The notes below the pieces were generated by a model, which worked only from the letters and a program-made list of their open reading frames with translations, was not told where the DNA came from and made no database searches. Both the position numbers and the translations under genes were made by a program. From an uncultured SAR86 cluster bacterium (GTDB lineage: Bacteria; Pseudomonadota; Gammaproteobacteria; Magnimaribacterales; AG-339-G14), in NCBI GenBank assembly GCA_902635045.1, contig CACPMT010000001.1, positions 30,993 through 94,992 on the forward strand: DNA of 64,000 nt, written 5' to 3'. Positions within the stretch are counted from its first letter, which is position 1, and the number at the start of each line of letters is the position of its first letter. Below are positions 5,038 through 26,321 of this stretch, one piece after another.

Positions 5038-5484
5038 ATGAAAGATAAAGAAAAATATTCAAAACTTAAAAGTTTCCACTTTGTTTGTGAAAAAAATTAT
5101 CTTTTATTTTCTCAAATCTTGCCAAATTTAAATGAGGAAAAGGTTTTTTCTTTTGGGTTGCCAATAAAAAATTCAAAATTAAGTGAAGTGTCAATAAATC
5201 TAAAAAAAGTTTCAAAATTTACTTCCGAAATTAAAGTATGTTTAGCTGCAGAATTATCAAAAAAGATAGAGATTGAAGTTCGTTTATATCATGAAGCTAA
5301 AATGTGTGAAGTGATAAAGTTTCAAGGGTTTCACCAAAGTTTAATTTCAATTTTTATAGGTCAGAAAAAATTTGGGTTTACTAAAGACGAAAAATACCAA
5401 TGGAATTCTTTCTTGAATAAATTTTTAATAATTTGCAAAGAGTCTGGAAGATCACTTGAAAATTTTATACCTTCACGGGTTTAA
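5038..5484 (+). CDS. DUF1249 (YqiB-like) protein
   Basis: 148 aa lying immediately upstream of and overlapping a yqiA-like esterase, as in enterobacterial yqiB-yqiA. Assigned mainly from synteny and size. Confidence 0.45.
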   Translation: MKDKEKYSKLKSFHFVCEKNYLLFSQILPNLNEEKVFSFGLPIKNSKLSEVSINLKKVSKFTSEIKVCLAAELSKKIEIEVRLYHEAKMCEVIKFQGFHQSLISIFIGQKKFGFTKDEKYQWNSFLNKFLIICKESGRSLENFIPSRV

Positions 5485-21734: not shown

Positions 21735-21810
21735 GCCCAGATAGCTCAGTTGGTAGAGCAAAGGACTGAAAATCCTTGTGTCGGTGGTTCGATCCCACCT
21801 CTGGGCACCA
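21735..21810 (+). tRNA. tRNA-Phe (anticodon GAA), CCA encoded
   Basis: Manual cloverleaf: acceptor GCCCAGA/TCTGGGC, D stem GCTC/GAGC, anticodon stem AAGGA/TCCTT, loop CTGAAAA, T stem GGTGG/CCACC, T loop TTCGATC. Confidence 0.95.
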
Positions 21811-21838
21811 TTCTGACAGCATTCTTAAAAATAAAACT

Positions 21839-21875
21839 GGTGAACAGTTGGTGAACAGGCACTCTTCTGTTCACC
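21839..21875. repeat. GGTGAACAG motif cluster, islet 1 left end (2 direct + 1 inverted copy)
   Basis: GGTGAACAG at 21839-21847 and 21850-21858, CTGTTCACC at 21867-21875. Confidence 0.9.
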
Positions 21876-21877
21876 AA
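21848..21877 (-). terminator. 11-bp-stem hairpin immediately after the HIT stop codon (possible terminator)
   Basis: TTGGTGAACAG-gcactctt-CTGTTCACCAA. On the minus strand a T-rich run (GTTTTATTTTT) follows, but only after about 10 nt. Confidence 0.35.
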
Positions 21878-22285
21878 TTAATATGACTGTTTTTCAGGTA
21901 TTACCCCTCTTACTCCTCCTCTTGGATCATCCATATCTCCTTTTCTTCTTGGAATTAAATGAACATGACAATGCATTACAGTCTGACCCGCATCGGAACC
22001 GTCGTTAATTCCAATATTAAATCCTGTGATAAGATTGTCTTTTTCCATGAGTGCTTCTCTTTCAATTTCAAGAAGTTCAAATATTGCCTCTTTCTCATTC
22101 TTTTCTAGGTCAAAAAATGATTGAACATGTCTTTTAGGAATAAATAATGAATGCCCTTCTGTTACTGGATACAAATCCTTAAAAGAAAGAGCAAAATTAT
22201 TTTCTCTCTCTACTCTTGATTGCTCTAAATTACAAAAAATACAATCTTTCAAATTGACTCTCCAAATATCTCTGATGGTTCCCAT
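21878..22285 (-). CDS. HIT-family nucleotide hydrolase/transferase
   Basis: Histidine triad HCHVHLIPR (H105/H107/H109 in ORF-track numbering) and N-terminal CIFC. Likely true start is TTG 22252, overlapping the upstream stop as TTGA with GGAGAG 5 nt upstream (124 aa). Confidence 0.85.
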   Translation of the reverse strand: MGTIRDIWRVNLKDCIFCNLEQSRVERENNFALSFKDLYPVTEGHSLFIPKRHVQSFFDLEKNEKEAIFELLEIEREALMEKDNLITGFNIGINDGSDAGQTVMHCHVHLIPRRKGDMDDPRGGVRGVIPEKQSY

Positions 22286-23265
22286 TTTATAGGAATATGA
22301 CTTACGGAATTGTTAAACATCTTTTGTAGAAAATCTTTTCTTTCTGTATCTGTTTTGCCAGTCTGATTAATGATTGTTTCCCTTAGAGGGTGATGACTTT
22401 CTATATAAAAATTATTCCTTTTATTCAATGCTTCCAGATAGTTAATTTTAGGTATTTTTTCAAATTTTCCTCCTGATCCCCTATTACATTCACGACATGT
22501 TAAAACTAAATTCCAAATTTGATCAACCTCTGACAGTCCGTAATCTTTTAATATGTGAGGAAAGAAATGATCTACATCGCATGAATTTTCATTTCCTTGC
22601 TGAATTGAAATATGTTTGTAGCAATAAAAACATTTACTTTTTTGATAACCATTTAGAGCATCTCTTGAGGAGGTTACGTTTTGTCTTCTTTTCTTATCAT
22701 CTAATACAAAAAGACATTCATCTTCATCATCATTAATAATTTCTAATAATGATGGATTAACATTCAGTGAGATTGCTGTTTCCCAAAGATTCCATCGAGA
22801 TTCTGCCTCATTTTTTAAATTTCCATAAATGTCTTTCTCTTTTAATTTATAAAAATTGTCTGTGAGGATAATAGATTTGTTTTCTTTTCTGTTGTCTGTA
22901 AAAAATCTAGTTGTTTCTTCTCTTGCTACTATGTGAAATGCATCAATGACATTAACAAAACCCATTCTTATAGTTATTTGCTTTAATTCTTCTTCATTAA
23001 TCTCTGCATTGTTAAATCTTTTACATGCATCTAAGAACTTACTAGTTTTTGATGTAACTTGTTTTTCATTGTTTAATAAGTGATCACATATATTTTTTGC
23101 AAATGGAACTGCCAGATTTTCAATTTCTATTTCTGAACTGGAAGTATCGATCTCAAGAAGTGACTTTGCTAGAGCAAATTTATATGAGGCAACATTTCTT
23201 CCAAGCAGGATAATTGACCTCCATGAAGTATCAAGACTAGGATCTTTATCTACAAATAATTGCAT
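22249..23265 (-). CDS. HNH (beta-beta-alpha-Me, zinc-ribbon) endonuclease with unassigned ~200-aa N-terminal domain
   Basis: C212-FY-C215 ... C229-DVDH233 ... N252 ... C257-RE-C260-N261. The N-terminal region is not recognisable to me. Confidence 0.8.
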   Translation of the reverse strand: MQLFVDKDPSLDTSWRSIILLGRNVASYKFALAKSLLEIDTSSSEIEIENLAVPFAKNICDHLLNNEKQVTSKTSKFLDACKRFNNAEINEEELKQITIRMGFVNVIDAFHIVAREETTRFFTDNRKENKSIILTDNFYKLKEKDIYGNLKNEAESRWNLWETAISLNVNPSLLEIINDDEDECLFVLDDKKRRQNVTSSRDALNGYQKSKCFYCYKHISIQQGNENSCDVDHFFPHILKDYGLSEVDQIWNLVLTCRECNRGSGGKFEKIPKINYLEALNKRNNFYIESHHPLRETIINQTGKTDTERKDFLQKMFNNSVSHIPIKWEPSEIFGESI

Positions 23266-23277
23266 GTATTAAGTTTA

Positions 23278-23347
23278 TGTTCACCTAAACAAATTATAGC
23301 AACAGATTCTCAATGTTGTTGGTGAACAGGTAGGTGAACAGAAGAGT
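23278..23347. repeat. GGTGAACAG motif cluster, islet 1 right end (1 inverted + 2 direct copies)
   Basis: TGTTCACC at 23278-23285; GGTGAACAG at 23321-23329 and 23333-23341. GGTGAACAGAAGAGT (23333-23347) is the exact reverse complement of 21861-21875. Confidence 0.9.
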
Positions 23348-23390
23348 CTGTAATATGCATTCTTATGAGGTTGTTATTGTCGAGTCAAGA

Positions 23391-23436
23391 ACTGAAAATC
23401 CTTGTGTCGGTGGTTCGATTCCACCTCTGGGCACCA
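23391..23436 (+). repeat. direct repeat of tRNA-Phe 3' part (anticodon loop to CCA), att-like copy 1
   Basis: 45/46 identical to 21765-21810 (T at 23420 versus C at 21794). Confidence 0.95.
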
Positions 23437-23475
23437 ACGAGATAACATTTTTAAAACCAACTCAATAATACTAAA

Positions 23476-23492
23476 ATACCCCCAATGGGTAT
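23476..23492. promoter_or_regulatory. candidate CsoR-family operator
   Basis: ATACCC-ccaat-GGGTAT is the only GC-rich palindrome in this AT-rich leader. It overlaps ATG 23485, and a CsoR-type repressor is encoded in the same operon. Confidence 0.55.
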
Positions 23493-24084
23493 AAGAATTA
23501 TTTGTCTTTTGTCTATCATGTCGTTTGGACTTGATGCTAGACCTATATCTTACACAGGTGGTTCAACCATAATGGCGTTTTCAGATAACATAAAAAATTC
23601 TATCTACTACCATTATTCGCCATCCTATAAATACTCAATTGGGATTGAAGTTATAAGAAATAAATATTTTAAAGATAATTATTCATATGTTAGATATACA
23701 TACTTAATAAATAGAAAGAATACTGAAAACTCTCAAAGAAATTTGTATTTTCAATCTGGTGTTAGTTCAAAAGGTTTTGATGAATTTTTTTATGGTATAC
23801 ATGGAGATTGGGAAACAAGAAGATTATTTGTTGGTTTTGGAATAAAGGAAACTGAAAGAAAAATTCAAGACTATTTAGAACAATACTATCAAATAGGAGT
23901 TGCGCCCTATCTTGGTGATTATGGTGACTTGCACACATGGATAATGATTAAGGCAAAAGATAATTCTCTTGAGAATAAGTGGTCAACTTACCCTGTATTA
24001 AAATTTTTTAAAGGAAATGTTCTTATGGAATTTGGTTATAGCAAAAAAACTAAATGGGATGTTCATCTAATGTATAGATTTTGA
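23485..24084 (+). CDS. secreted small beta-barrel-like (OMP-like) protein, function unknown
   Basis: Signal-peptide-like N-terminus (MGIRIICLLSIMSFGLDA), alternating aromatic/polar strand pattern, C-terminal ...MYRF typical of OM beta-barrels. Confidence 0.4.
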   Translation: MGIRIICLLSIMSFGLDARPISYTGGSTIMAFSDNIKNSIYYHYSPSYKYSIGIEVIRNKYFKDNYSYVRYTYLINRKNTENSQRNLYFQSGVSSKGFDEFFYGIHGDWETRRLFVGFGIKETERKIQDYLEQYYQIGVAPYLGDYGDLHTWIMIKAKDNSLENKWSTYPVLKFFKGNVLMEFGYSKKTKWDVHLMYRF

Positions 24085-24494
24085 GAGGAAAAATGAAAAA
24101 TATATTATTAATTCTTATTTTTACTTCAATGGCATGGGGAGAAACCCCTCATGACAGCATGCATCATACTCATGAAGGACATGTTCATGAAGAATTTGTA
24201 GATGGTAAGAAATTAGAAGTTGATCCTGAGAGATTTGATAAATTCGTTATGGATCTTGAAGATACCCAAATTGCAATCGTGAATGTTCAAGGTATGGTGT
24301 GTGATTTTTGTGCTAGAGGTATTGAAAAAATATTTAAAAAAGACACCAATGTAAAAAAAGTAGACGTTGATCTGAGCAAAGGAAAAGTTTTAATCGCATA
24401 CAATGTTGCTCATGAAATAATCTTTGATGATATCAAGGAAAAAATTCTAATAAACGGACAAAATGCAATTGACATGAAGGTTATTAATCTTTAA
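24081..24494 (+). CDS. periplasmic heavy-metal-associated (HMA, MerP/CopZ-like) protein with His-rich N-terminus
   Basis: Signal peptide, then HDSMHHTHEGHVHEE, then HMA motif GMVCDFCARGIEK. Alternative start ATG 24093 (GAGAGG SD). Confidence 0.75.
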   Translation: MRGKMKNILLILIFTSMAWGETPHDSMHHTHEGHVHEEFVDGKKLEVDPERFDKFVMDLEDTQIAIVNVQGMVCDFCARGIEKIFKKDTNVKKVDVDLSKGKVLIAYNVAHEIIFDDIKEKILINGQNAIDMKVINL

Positions 24495-24499
24495 AAATT

Positions 24500-24865
24500 A
24501 TGCAAGATAAATCAGCAAATTTTTTATCCTTGTTTGCCTCGTCATCAACTTTAATATGTTGTGCACTTCCTTCATTATTTATTGCAGTTGGTGCAGGTGC
24601 TTCTTTTGCAAGTTTAATAACAGTCTTTCCATTTTTAATTGTCTTATCTCAATATAAATTATCTATAACAATATTTGCTTCAGTGACCATCATATTTGCT
24701 GGATATGTGAATTATAAAACTTATTATATGCCTTGCCCCACAGATCCTGAGTTAGGCAAGTTATGCATGCAAACTAGAAAACAATCAAGATATGTTTATT
24801 ACATTTCAGTTGTATTGTTTATTTTTGCTACAATATTTACTTATTTAGTTCCTAAATTCGTATGA
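24500..24865 (+). CDS. MerT-like small membrane metal transporter (CC motif in TM1)
   Basis: 121 aa, about 3-4 TM. LICCALP in TM1 and a second Cys pair PCPTDPELGKLC in a loop, the same layout as MerT. Confidence 0.5.
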   Translation: MQDKSANFLSLFASSSTLICCALPSLFIAVGAGASFASLITVFPFLIVLSQYKLSITIFASVTIIFAGYVNYKTYYMPCPTDPELGKLCMQTRKQSRYVYYISVVLFIFATIFTYLVPKFV

Positions 24866-25122
24866 AAAATCCATGCCATAAAGAAGAAATTCCTAGTCTT
24901 AACAGAATTGAGGGACAAGTTCGTGGAATTGCTAACATGATTGATGAAGAAAAGTATTGCATTGATATACTCAATCAAATCAAGGCAGTTAGAAATGCTC
25001 TTACAAGTATTGAAGGAAAAATATTAAAAAGACATATGAAAGAATGTGTTAAGGAAGCATTAAATGATCAGAAGGGTTTTGACAATAAGGTTGAGGAAAT
25101 ATTAAAAACCCTTAAAAGATAG
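24862..25122 (+). CDS. CsoR/RcnR/FrmR-family metal-sensing transcriptional repressor
   Basis: 86 aa. RIEGQVRGIANMI, and a C...H...C ligand pattern (YCIDIL ... RHMKEC). Confidence 0.8.
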   Translation: MKNPCHKEEIPSLNRIEGQVRGIANMIDEEKYCIDILNQIKAVRNALTSIEGKILKRHMKECVKEALNDQKGFDNKVEEILKTLKR

Positions 25123-25140
25123 ATTAAATTACTGGTTTCA

Positions 25141-25207
25141 TGTGTGCGCTCTTTGTATCAATGCTGTGAAGGTTTTTATCATCTTCGTGCACACAGGTGT
25201 GCACACA
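25141..25207. repeat. GTGCACACA motif cluster, islet 2 right end
   Basis: TGTGTGCGC at 25141-25149 (inverted, 8/9). GTGCACACA at 25187-25195 and 25199-25207. Confidence 0.85.
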
Positions 25208-25259
25208 AATGGTCTGAAAGGTAATACTTTAAAGGGATTATGACTTACGAACAAAGAAC

Positions 25260-25305
25260 TGAAAATCCTTGTGTCGGTGGTTCGATTCCACCTCTGGGCA
25301 CCACA
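25260..25305 (+). repeat. direct repeat of tRNA-Phe 3' part, att-like copy 2
   Basis: 46/46 identical to 23391-23436, and 45/46 to the tRNA. Confidence 0.95.
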
Positions 25306-25358: not shown

Positions 25359-26321
25359 GTGAGATTTTTTAAAAAAGAAAGAAAACTTTATCCATCCATT
25401 GAGCCGTTTGATTCAGGCTTTATCAAAAAAGGAATTCATGAAATCTATTACGAACAGTGTGGAAATCCTAAAGGCAAGCCTGCAGTTTTTTTACATGGAG
25501 GACCAGGGGGAGGAGCTGGAAAACTTTCTAGAAGATTTTTCAATCCAAAAAAATATAGAATAATTCTGTTTGATCAAAGAGGCTGCGGTAAAAGCAAACC
25601 TCATACTTGCTTAGAAGAAAATACCACTTGGCACCTAGTAGATGATATTGAATCTATTAGAAAAAAACTACAAATAGAAAAATGGTTAGTTTTCGGAGGA
25701 TCTTGGGGAAGCACTCTTGCTCTAGCTTATGCTCAAAAACACCCTGAGCATGTTTCTGAACTTATTCTAAGAGGTATTTTTATGCTTAGAGAAAAGGAAC
25801 TCAAGTGGTTCTATCAGTATGGAGCAAGTGAAATATATCCTGAAGCTTGGCAAGGATTTATAAATGAAATTCCTGAAGAGGAAAGATTTGATCTAATTGA
25901 TGCCTATAGAAAAATTTTTAATAGCAAGGATAAAGAAAAAAAGCTGTCTGCTGCTAAGGCTTGGTCTAAGTGGGAAGCATCTGCAAGCTATATTAATCAT
26001 AACCCAAGCGCTGTAAAAGATTCTGTAAATGCAGAGTTTGCTTTGGCATTTGCGCTCATTGAAAACCACTATTTTGTAAATAAAGGTTTTTTGGATTACG
26101 AAAATCAACTTTTAGATAACATAGATCTTATCAGGCATATTCCAGCAATAATAATCCAAGGAAGATATGATGTGGTTTGTCCTTCCACCACTGCATACGA
26201 ACTTTATTCAAAATGGCCTGAAGCTGAACTTAAAATTGCACCTTTCTCTGGACACTCCGCCTTTGAAAAAGAAATTACCGATCTACTAGTCGATGCTACA
26301 GATATTTTTGGCAAGAACTAA
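25359..26321 (+). CDS. pip: prolyl aminopeptidase (proline iminopeptidase)
   Basis: HGGPGGG and GGSWGSTLAL motifs. GTG start. Confidence 0.88.
   Translation: MRFFKKERKLYPSIEPFDSGFIKKGIHEIYYEQCGNPKGKPAVFLHGGPGGGAGKLSRRFFNPKKYRIILFDQRGCGKSKPHTCLEENTTWHLVDDIESIRKKLQIEKWLVFGGSWGSTLALAYAQKHPEHVSELILRGIFMLREKELKWFYQYGASEIYPEAWQGFINEIPEEERFDLIDAYRKIFNSKDKEKKLSAAKAWSKWEASASYINHNPSAVKDSVNAEFALAFALIENHYFVNKGFLDYENQLLDNIDLIRHIPAIIIQGRYDVVCPSTTAYELYSKWPEAELKIAPFSGHSAFEKEITDLLVDATDIFGKN

Follow-up and report, generated by a model that had tools for sequence, protein, structure and literature searches.

How do gene cassettes that encode no integrase come to lie one behind the other at a tRNA gene, and what are the short phased repeats at their ends? 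This question is raised by a 64-kb stretch of SAR86 cluster DNA (referred to as the window; positions given without a locus name are positions in it), in which two small islets, islet 1 (21811–23390) and islet 2 (23437–25257), follow a tRNA-Phe gene and carry repeats of different sequence, GGTGAACAG and GTGCACACA, respectively. In streamlined ocean bacteria such as SAR86, much strain-level variation lies in small cassette arrays adjacent to tRNA genes. An earlier note on the sequence had read the repeats as arm-type sites for recombinases of one element family, and the analysis described here supports that reading. Islets 1 and 2 are best explained as non-autonomous members of an integrative element family that targets the 3′ half of tRNA-Phe in SAR86. 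The phased repeats are probably arm-type sites of tyrosine integrases encoded by helper elements, by which the integrase-less islets would be moved in trans.

Precise insertions at the tRNA-Phe gene

The window (G+C content, 32.7%) has a single tRNA gene, tRNA-Phe(GAA) (ARAGORN; Rfam tRNA, 72.9 bits), and Rfam reports nothing besides this tRNA in the region. The last 46 nt of the gene are present in three copies (repeat family D1), which bound the two islets as attachment (att) sites. The identity with the tRNA starts with ACTGAAAAT, at 23391 behind islet 1 and at 25258 behind islet 2. Relatives of the flanking pip gene indicate a SAR86 cluster host. In a close relative (L154), whose flanks are 89% identical at the nucleotide level, the tRNA-Phe gene is joined directly to the pip flank. 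Comparison with this empty site shows that the 3.45 kb present in the window are precise insertions, with att copies as their boundaries.

No recombinase is found in either islet or in the rest of the window with Pfam or with phmmer using P0001, an integrase of the family described below. The features of an integron are not found either: no integrase lies near tRNA-Phe in the window or in SAR86 loci that are empty or contain islets only, and the islet boundaries are 46-nt tRNA repeats with arms of the double-stranded type, not attC. A promoter and terminator scan of the region gives nothing above shuffled expectation. Exact-protein look-ups of the window proteins give matches in two short contigs only.

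Phased repeats at the islet ends

All five exact copies of GGTGAACAG in the window are located at the ends of islet 1 (21839, 21850, 23321, and 23333 on the plus strand, and 21867 on the minus strand), and an inverted copy with one mismatch is found at 23277–23285. Both exact copies of GTGCACACA (25187 and 25199) are located at the right end of islet 2. For GTGCACACA, none of 100 shuffled sequences reaches the count observed. It should be noted that the number of GGTGAACAG matches with at most one mismatch in the window (9, versus 6.1 expected) is unexceptional; the exceptional point is that the exact copies are all at islet ends. In this sense, the repeats pointed out in the earlier note are real.

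The arrangement of the repeats described there is likewise found, apart from a few points. Both right-end pairs have the 12-bp phase claimed for them, while the phase of the left-end pair of islet 1, which is followed by one inverted copy as described, is 11 bp. The spacings of 35 and 49 nt at the right end of islet 1 are reproduced, the latter being the distance from the pair to the start of tRNA identity at 23391. In islet 2, the 37-nt spacing is likewise found, but the distance from the right pair to ACTGAAAAT at 25258 is 50 nt and not 52 nt, since the earlier count ended 2 nt further in. The exact inverted match of 15 nt between 21861–21875 and 23333–23347 is present. To speak of terminal-inverted-repeat-like ends on this ground is misleading, as the pairs run in the same direction in both arms, an arrangement that is attP-like and not transposon-like. 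The element CATT[C/T]TTAAAA is present 10 nt past the CCA at both left ends, and GTGCACAC-AG-GTGTGCAC is a perfect palindrome with 8-bp arms, both as noted before. The GTGCACACA pair of islet 2, itself part of a palindrome, is followed by a diverged form (CTGAAAGGTAATACTTTAAAGGGATTATGACTTACGAACAAAGA) of a conserved block described in the next section. The left end of islet 2 has no repeat copies, a point missed in the earlier note. On the minus strand, TGcTATAAT (23293–23301) lies inside the 35-nt spacer of the islet 1 right arm and is directed into the cargo, where it may serve as a −10-like element.

One arm layout across marine metagenomes

We scanned metagenomes with the element-specific att junction CGAGTCAWGRACTGAAAATCCTTGTG only, and not with the repeats, as the query. 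The scan yielded 59 marine loci. The 56 unique right arms align in one layout, which consists of an inverted TGTTCA, about 37 nt, the pair xxTGAACA[G/C]-nnn-xxTGAACA[G/C], then a conserved block that spans some 45 nt (CTCTGAAACATGCATTCTTATAGGGTTTTTATTCT), and the tRNA-Phe 3′ half. This architecture is kept across more than 60 islets. An alignment of related tRNA-Phe islets had been proposed in the earlier note, and these 56 right arms show the conserved spacing that was anticipated there. Covariation of the motif with the integrase is described later. All right-arm pairs detected have a 12-bp phase, and left-arm pairs have a phase of 10–11 bp except for single 12-bp cases in L171 and L210. The pair-core distance of the right arm, 49–50 nt in the window, corresponds to the same aligned position in the 56 arms. 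The distance between the left-arm pair and the CCA ranges from 28 to 63 nt. Each islet retains both halves of an attP, with some 115 nt in the right arm and 65 nt in the left, together a chassis of about 180 bp.

The repeat motif itself occurs in variants. TTTGAACAG is the commonest, GGTGAACAG, ATGAACAC, TTTGAACAC, TTTGAATAC, and ATGCACAG are also found, and other islets have TTAACACAC, GTGCACA, TTGTACACAG, or CGCACAC. The same 7-mer is present on both arms in every islet with pairs on both (14/14). The flanking bases, judged by inspection, also agree between the arms in all islets but L232. This sole islet with disagreeing arms (L232, 99–6137) is 6 kb long and may be a fusion of two islets after an internal att copy was lost.

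The islets range from 0.1 to 6 kb in size, and their cargo consists mostly of type I, II, and III restriction-modification genes. No recombinase is present among the 25 commonest Pfam families of 134 clusters of open reading frames from metagenomic cargo and flanks, a list that does not include all single-member families. A 935-nt islet has different neighbors in L236 and L248. In L216 (2719–2826), a 108-nt “empty” element between two att copies has no cargo and consists of arms only, in which a single TTGTACACAG pair is present. A large family of marine phages also has two copies of a block that resembles the conserved arm block closely (CTCTGAAAggTGCATTCnTAnnGnTTT) (L265/L273, approximately 1200–1470; L274–L352). 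Each phage copy is followed by three TGTGCAG-type repeats, in a region between a primase-helicase/methyltransferase module and terS, and no integrase lies within 10 kb in this family.

The left-arm layout of islet 1 is also found in 8 other GGTGAACAG-type islets and beside the int start codon in L227, an autonomous element. Islet 1 itself is present at 98% identity in L250, where its right neighbor is another one. Islet 2 is also present in L124, L126, and L138, and its right arm forms a decay series in them, from intact (L124) through one remaining copy (L126) to deleted (L138). Islet 2, having a right arm only, is probably a fixed, decaying, and immobile relic.

For islet 2, another explanation of the repeats should be considered, namely that GTGCACAC-AG-GTGTGCAC is a hairpin, a terminator or a stabilizer, that ends the metal-resistance operon, and that the likeness to islet 1 arises by chance. 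The perfect palindrome lies some 65 nt past the stop codon of the CsoR gene. The lack of left-arm copies fits such a role, as does the result that no cognate integrase is found among the integrase contexts examined. However, the hairpin is not followed by a T-run and is not reported by the terminator scan. Moreover, the inverted copy, the 37-nt spacer, the 12-bp phase, and the 50 nt to the core agree nearly base for base with the geometry of the family. What lies between pair and core is a diverged copy of the family conserved block, and two other islets, L191 and L249, have GTGCACA-type pairs in their left arms. These observations make a hairpin with a chance likeness highly improbable.

Autonomous elements with the same arms

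The arms are also found in autonomous elements of about 8.3 kb, which encode a tyrosine integrase, an HUH rolling-circle Rep (PF23343), and, next to the right arm, a resolvase (PF00239). No conjugation genes are detected in the 8.3-kb element. In L240, the gene order wraps around, and a single attP is composed of the right arm, the tRNA-Phe half, and the left arm. The left arm contains TTTGAACAGtTTTGAACAG-8-CTGTTCAAA, and 17 nt further on a 388-aa protein with tyrosine-recombinase motifs starts. Homologues of this integrase are abundant in marine data, and PF00589 is detected in some of them. Autonomous elements are integrated at tRNA-Phe in L353 and L358 (SAR86 single-cell genomes), L360, and L373, a set that also includes metagenomic contigs, and relatives are located at tRNA-Ile in L368, L370, and L375. 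Contigs with a single attP, both arms, and overlapping ends (L240/L361, L362, and L365) are taken to be circular or tandem; in L362, the exact terminal overlap is 141 nt and the unit is 8309 bp. L354 and L376 have a single attP, with no end overlap found.

The autonomous elements share both the att site and the arms with the islets, L227 for GGTGAACAG and L240, L358, and L373 for other motifs. In L227, GGTGAACAGTTGGTGAACAG-8-CTGTTCAC ends 5 nt before the start of an integrase that has an N-terminal type of its own. Within the autonomous elements, copies of the motif are concentrated in the arms of attP and not near rep. Conserved arms in more than 60 islets, together with autonomous elements in which the integrase lies beside the left arm, support the reading of the repeats as arm-type recombinase sites.

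The integrase family is not easily found by similarity. It is missed both by phmmer with P4 Int and by a box-II regular expression; the family has YSLRHS instead of HxLRH, and it was found through the wrap-around contig L240. In a search for helpers in viral contigs, the tRNA core matched phage tRNA genes only and the TTTGAACAG pair gave chance matches; a synthetic attP searched against a phage collection gave a match confined to the tRNA part.

Two further observations concern the genes next to the arms. In most autonomous elements, e.g., L240 (4186–4803), L353 (17667–18263), L373 (8382–8984), and L227 (904–1494), a highly conserved small serine resolvase lies beside the right arm, and the inverted copy of this arm doubles as the start of its gene (ATGAACAG, Met-Asn-Arg). 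In an element of TTTGAACAG type (L361), two further copies of TTGAACAG are found in the integrase coding region, at 5429 (minus) and 5453 (plus), about 380–400 nt into the gene.

The arm motif and the integrase N-terminal domain

A predicted model of the integrase (AlphaFold2; mean predicted local distance difference test score, pLDDT, 82) has four N-terminal strands (residues 9–40) and a helix (46–62), followed by core-binding and catalytic domains. The best Foldseek match of the model is full-length lambda Int (1z1g, E 2e-6), and XerA, IntI, and XerH are also matched. The model thereby shows the tyrosine-recombinase fold.

We compared 10 integrase/motif pairs, the types of which are listed in Table 1. 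Motif similarity correlates with identity in the N-terminal domain of the integrase (Mantel rho 0.50, p 0.002) but not with identity in the remaining part (rho 0.05, p 0.39). Two pairs of integrases illustrate this point. P0001 and P0103, which are 79% identical in the N-terminal domain and 52% in the rest, both have TTTGAACAG arms, whereas P0001 and P0005, which are 84% identical in the rest and 50% in the N-terminal domain, have different motifs. Thus, in sequence comparison the arm motif covaries with the N-terminal domain of the integrase. The integrase is also the only protein found in all elements compared. The proposal that one element family combines the same geometry with different specificity is borne out, as the motif variants follow the N-terminal domain.

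Table 1. Integrase N-terminal types and the arm motifs of their elements.
N-terminal type	Arm motif	Integrase or element
TK[NY]WWGRLWINGKHY	GGTGAACAG	L227
SRFYWGYL[TS]INK[KR]VF	TTTGAACAG	P0001 (tRNA-Phe), P0103 (tRNA-Ile)
TPYYWGCLRIDKKYY	TATGAACAG	P0015
SPYYWGYLNVGGVIKK	TTTGAACAC	P0005
SDFFWGYLNVSGVVKK	TTTGAATAC	P0098
SPRYYGCLRIDGKY[FY]	TATACACAG / TATGCACAG	P0069, P0038
..FYGCLRINNQY	TATACACAC	P0110, P0113

This covariation bears on which protein reads the repeats. The resolvase gene abuts the right arm in L240, L353, L373, L227, and L376, and its start codon overlaps the inverted copy, so that the repeats could be taken for res-like sites of this enzyme. The helix-turn-helix region of the resolvase (NNVPIKRIAKDLQIGVGTVYK), however, is identical in elements with four different motifs, and in L366 and L368, both of which are integrated and keep their arms, no resolvase homologue is found within the approximately 10 kb examined. 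With a helix-turn-helix region invariant across four motif types, the resolvase was rejected as the reader of the arm sites, and a res-like role of the repeats is barely credible.

A second possibility is that the repeats are operators of a transcription regulator, or autoregulatory sites for promoters in both arms, with no role in synapsis. Several observations fit this. In the autonomous elements, the left-arm pair, the spacer, and the inverted copy are located 3–17 nt upstream of the int start codon and overlap a promoter-like TTGAAC-N16-TATACT (read by eye). Around TTGATATA, an imperfect palindrome is made up by the second of the direct copies together with the inverted one, and in the right arm the ATG of the resolvase gene is overlapped by the inverted copy. 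In the window, the inverted copy and the pair are separated by a spacer with TGcTATAAT, which is upstream of the HNH gene. On the other hand, the elements have no regulator gene in common, p215 and the resolvase being absent from several. The sites are kept at fixed distances from the core in islets with unrelated cargo, even in the 108-nt element without cargo in L216, and in the left-arm spacer of islet 1 the TATA element is lost and the sites persist. Since the motif tracks the N-terminal domain of the integrase, a regulatory role is most simply a second job of the integrase and not a rival to recombination. We therefore consider operators alone to be an unlikely explanation.

The repeats also resemble the replication iterons of phage P4, and it is conceivable that a helper primase-helicase or Rep binds them to replicate excised islets. 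In reverse complement, GGTGAACAG is identical to TGTTCACC, which is annotated as the “ori type 1 repeat” in the ori and crr of P4 (X51522), and the P4 ori contains TGTTCACC-35 nt-GGTGAACAGaGGTGAACAG, a spacing equal to that of 23278–23341 in the window. The phased pair is present in more than 120 P4-like viral contigs, L038, which encodes a homologue of P4 alpha, mixes TGTTCA and TGTGCA repeats, and the marine phage family mentioned above has its similar block and TGTGCAG repeats about 3 kb downstream of the primase-helicase gene. Against this, no alpha-type primase-helicase is found in any SAR86 islet, locus, or autonomous element, the Rep of the elements being of the HUH rolling-circle type, and the motif copies are at attP and not near rep. 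The commonest motif, TTTGAACAG, agrees with the P4 repeat at no more than 6 of 8 positions. Phased arrays of TGTTCACC are confined to islet 1, most family members using TTTGAACAG or other variants, and the motif covaries with the N-terminal domain of the integrase. Because GGTGAACAG is one of at least seven variants, a single match to a known 8-mer is unsurprising. The iteron explanation was rejected on the absence of an alpha-type protein, the location of the motif, and its covariation with the integrase, and we hold it to be very improbable. The match in sequence and geometry to P4 (L123 9310–9413 and 4291–4590, compared with 23278–23341 and 21839–21875 in the window) is judged to be convergent or coincidental.

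Proposed mobilization of the islets in trans

We infer from these comparisons that the integrase binds to the arm repeats, that the islets are mobilized in trans, and that the sites have a secondary role in the control of promoters in the arms. In the mechanism proposed, the N-terminal β-sheet/helix domain of a heterobivalent tyrosine integrase would read the phased direct pair and the inverted copy, while the C-terminal domains would act on the tRNA-derived core, and an intasome would be built on attP or on a pair of attL and attR. The integrase would be supplied in trans by the autonomous relatives of about 8.3 kb. Element lineages would differ in the N-terminal domain, each with a matching arm motif, which would explain why the geometry is constant and the repeat sequence differs. 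Islet 1, which keeps all six GGTGAACAG-class sites, would be excisable by an integrase of L227 type; its set of sites is complete, and an integrase of the fitting type is known in L227. Indirect evidence for such movement comes from the different neighbors of islet 1 in L250 and of the 935-nt islet in L236 and L248. In the autonomous elements, where the left-arm sites are just upstream of int and the resolvase gene starts at the inverted copy of the right arm, binding of the integrase probably also feeds back on expression. The regulatory side-role that had been allowed for in the earlier note is plausible in this form.

Several points weigh against arm-type sites used in trans and should be noted. 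The arms of L232 disagree, with GGTGAACAG on the left and TTTGAACAG on the right. Since islet 2 is without left-arm sites, its repeats are taken as putative arm sites from the architecture, and no cognate integrase for GTGCACACA is found among the 10 integrase contexts examined. No unambiguous circular junction of an integrase-less islet is found, the contigs with att at both ends being ambiguous. The N-terminal domain of the integrase model by itself matches the P4-like arm-binding domain 3rmp weakly (probability 0.84, E 0.86), and a profile search of the integrase family against PDB sequences gives no match. The 10 covariation pairs are phylogenetically non-independent. Finally, the arm sites in the autonomous elements adjoin gene starts and could equally be operators.

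A wider reading, which we put forward tentatively and would not press, is that tRNA-Phe in SAR86 (and tRNA-Ile in relatives) is an integron-like cassette platform without a resident integrase, using a chassis of about 180 bp, 8.3-kb helpers acting in trans, and swapped arm-binding domains. The chassis would then be two attP arms carrying interchangeable defense or resistance cargo, and the rolling-circle helpers would be transient and possibly similar to single-stranded DNA phages. Swaps of the arm-binding domain would create several mutually exclusive mobilization “channels” in one population.

Islet contents and the tRNA gene

The coordinates of the features at the locus are listed in Table 2. 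For the cargo of islet 1, PADLOC gives weak matches to a PtuB-like HNH and a ThsC-like HIT protein. The HNH and HIT pair may be an uncharacterized two-gene defense system, which would fit the restriction-modification cargo of sister islets. L231 (114–2424, compared with 21868–21878 in the window) has the arms and the HNH-HIT module of islet 1 plus 2.3 kb of extra genes, which are joined exactly at the left-arm inverted copy. This case suggests cargo exchange inside a constant arm chassis. The CsoR, MerT-like, and HMA cassette of islet 2 is also found in L366 (10666–11485), in the opposite orientation. There, the att copy next to it has another arm motif (ACGCACA / TACGCACAC).

Table 2. Features of the tRNA-Phe locus in the 64-kb window.
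Feature	Position	Strand	Description
Intact tRNA-Phe(GAA)	21735–21810	+	3′ 46 nt (21765–21810) form att copy 1 (attL core of islet 1)
Islet 1 left arm (P′-like)	21811–21875	+	TTCTGACAGCATTCTTAAAA; GGTGAACAG at 21839 and 21850 (11-bp phase); 9-nt spacer; inverted CTGTTCACC at 21867–21875
Islet 1 cargo	21878–23265	−	HIT-domain protein, 21878–22285; 338-aa HNH_4 nuclease, 22249–23265 (Pfam)
Islet 1 right arm (P-like)	23277–23390	+	Inverted TGTTCACC at 23278–23285; 35 nt; GGTGAACAG gta GGTGAACAG at 23321–23341 (12-bp phase)
Islet 1 right arm, remainder	23342–23390	+	Conserved block, 23342–23380; element-specific junction CGAGTCAAGA, 23381–23390
att copy 2, partial tRNA-Phe 3′ half	23391–23436	+	attR of islet 1, attL of islet 2
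Islet 2 left end and cargo	23437–25140	+	199-aa unknown protein; HMA metal-binding protein; MerT-like membrane protein; CsoR-type metal-sensing repressor
Islet 2 right arm	25141–25257	+	Inverted TGTGTGCGC at 25141–25149 (8/9); 37 nt; GTGCACACA ggt GTGCACACA at 25187–25207 (12-bp phase)
att copy 3, partial tRNA-Phe 3′ half	25258–25303	+	attR of islet 2; native flank, then pip gene, 25359–26321

The T-loop base at 21794 in the intact tRNA is C (GATCCCACC), and the corresponding base is T at 23420, at 25287, and in the intact tRNA of L124. The C form is present in several attP cores, e.g., that of L240. A C at 21794 would be expected if the incoming islet 1 element had replaced the 3′ part of the tRNA.

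Comparison with known systems

The finding bears on how cassettes without an integrase reach tRNA loci. The cassettes keep a complete, conserved set of putative docking sites for integrases, and the matching integrases are encoded on separate, widespread 8-kb elements. The docking specificity appears to have diversified by changes in one small protein domain and its DNA sites. This gives a natural series of matched protein-domain/DNA-site pairs with which the arm specificity of tyrosine integrases could be studied or engineered. It also suggests a route, open to test, by which genes for restriction-modification and metal resistance may spread in the ocean. In the literature searched, we found no description of the SAR86 element family, of the compact arm chassis, or of a domain/site specificity series.

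One of the closest likenesses is to attP of the lambda/P4 type, in which short arm-type sites are located outside the core on both arms, as in SAR86. P4 attP has adjacent pairs with a 12-bp phase on both sides of the core and one inverted copy, and the SAR86 arms likewise have phased pairs and an inverted copy. In lambda and P4, a separate N-terminal domain reads the sites, as is predicted for the SAR86 integrase, whose best structural match is lambda Int. In sequence, however, the SAR86 integrase is very distant from those of lambda and P4, with no match among PDB sequences and none by phmmer with P4 Int. Unlike lambda and P4, the SAR86 family uses the whole 46-nt 3′ half of the tRNA as the identity segment, and it comprises at least seven arm specificities in one family, with the N-terminal domain decoupled from the part that recognizes the core. 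The type 1 repeats of P4 ori and crr share with islet 1 the same 8-mer, phased direct and inverted copies, and the 35-nt spacing. In P4, however, these repeats belong to the replication origin, and their annotation is that of ori and not of attP arm repeats, and the SAR86 elements have no alpha-type protein.

Cis-mobilizable elements (CIMEs) keep attL and attR, lack integration genes, and accrete at tRNA genes, where they form tandem arrays with related elements at the 3′ end; they are described as decayed integrative and conjugative or integrative and mobilizable elements of Firmicutes, which move by conjugation (PMC5704250). The SAR86 islets are like CIMEs in their attL and attR flanks, in the absence of an integrase inside, and in their tandem position at the tRNA 3′ end. 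They differ from CIMEs in being 0.1–6 kb long and very numerous, with an arm chassis of about 180 bp and very varied cargo. Their autonomous partner also differs from CIME systems, being an 8.3-kb rolling-circle element in which conjugation genes are not detected.

Marine bacteria are also known to have additive flexible genomic islands and tycheposons, which are tRNA-adjacent cassette arrays with repeats of tRNA 3′ ends and defense or resistance cargo (PMC10872708; bioRxiv 10.1101/2020.12.28.424599). The reports on them describe integrase-carrying elements or repeats alone, and neither arms with phased sites nor a match between sites and an integrase domain (PMC10872708; bioRxiv 10.1101/2020.12.28.424599). 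The SAR86 locus resembles them in its tRNA target, its partial-tRNA repeats, its variable defense or resistance cargo, and its streamlined marine genome. If SAR86 tRNA-Phe does act as a cassette platform served by helpers in trans, this would explain in concrete terms how the “additive flexible genomic islands” in marine bacteria with streamlined genomes come about.

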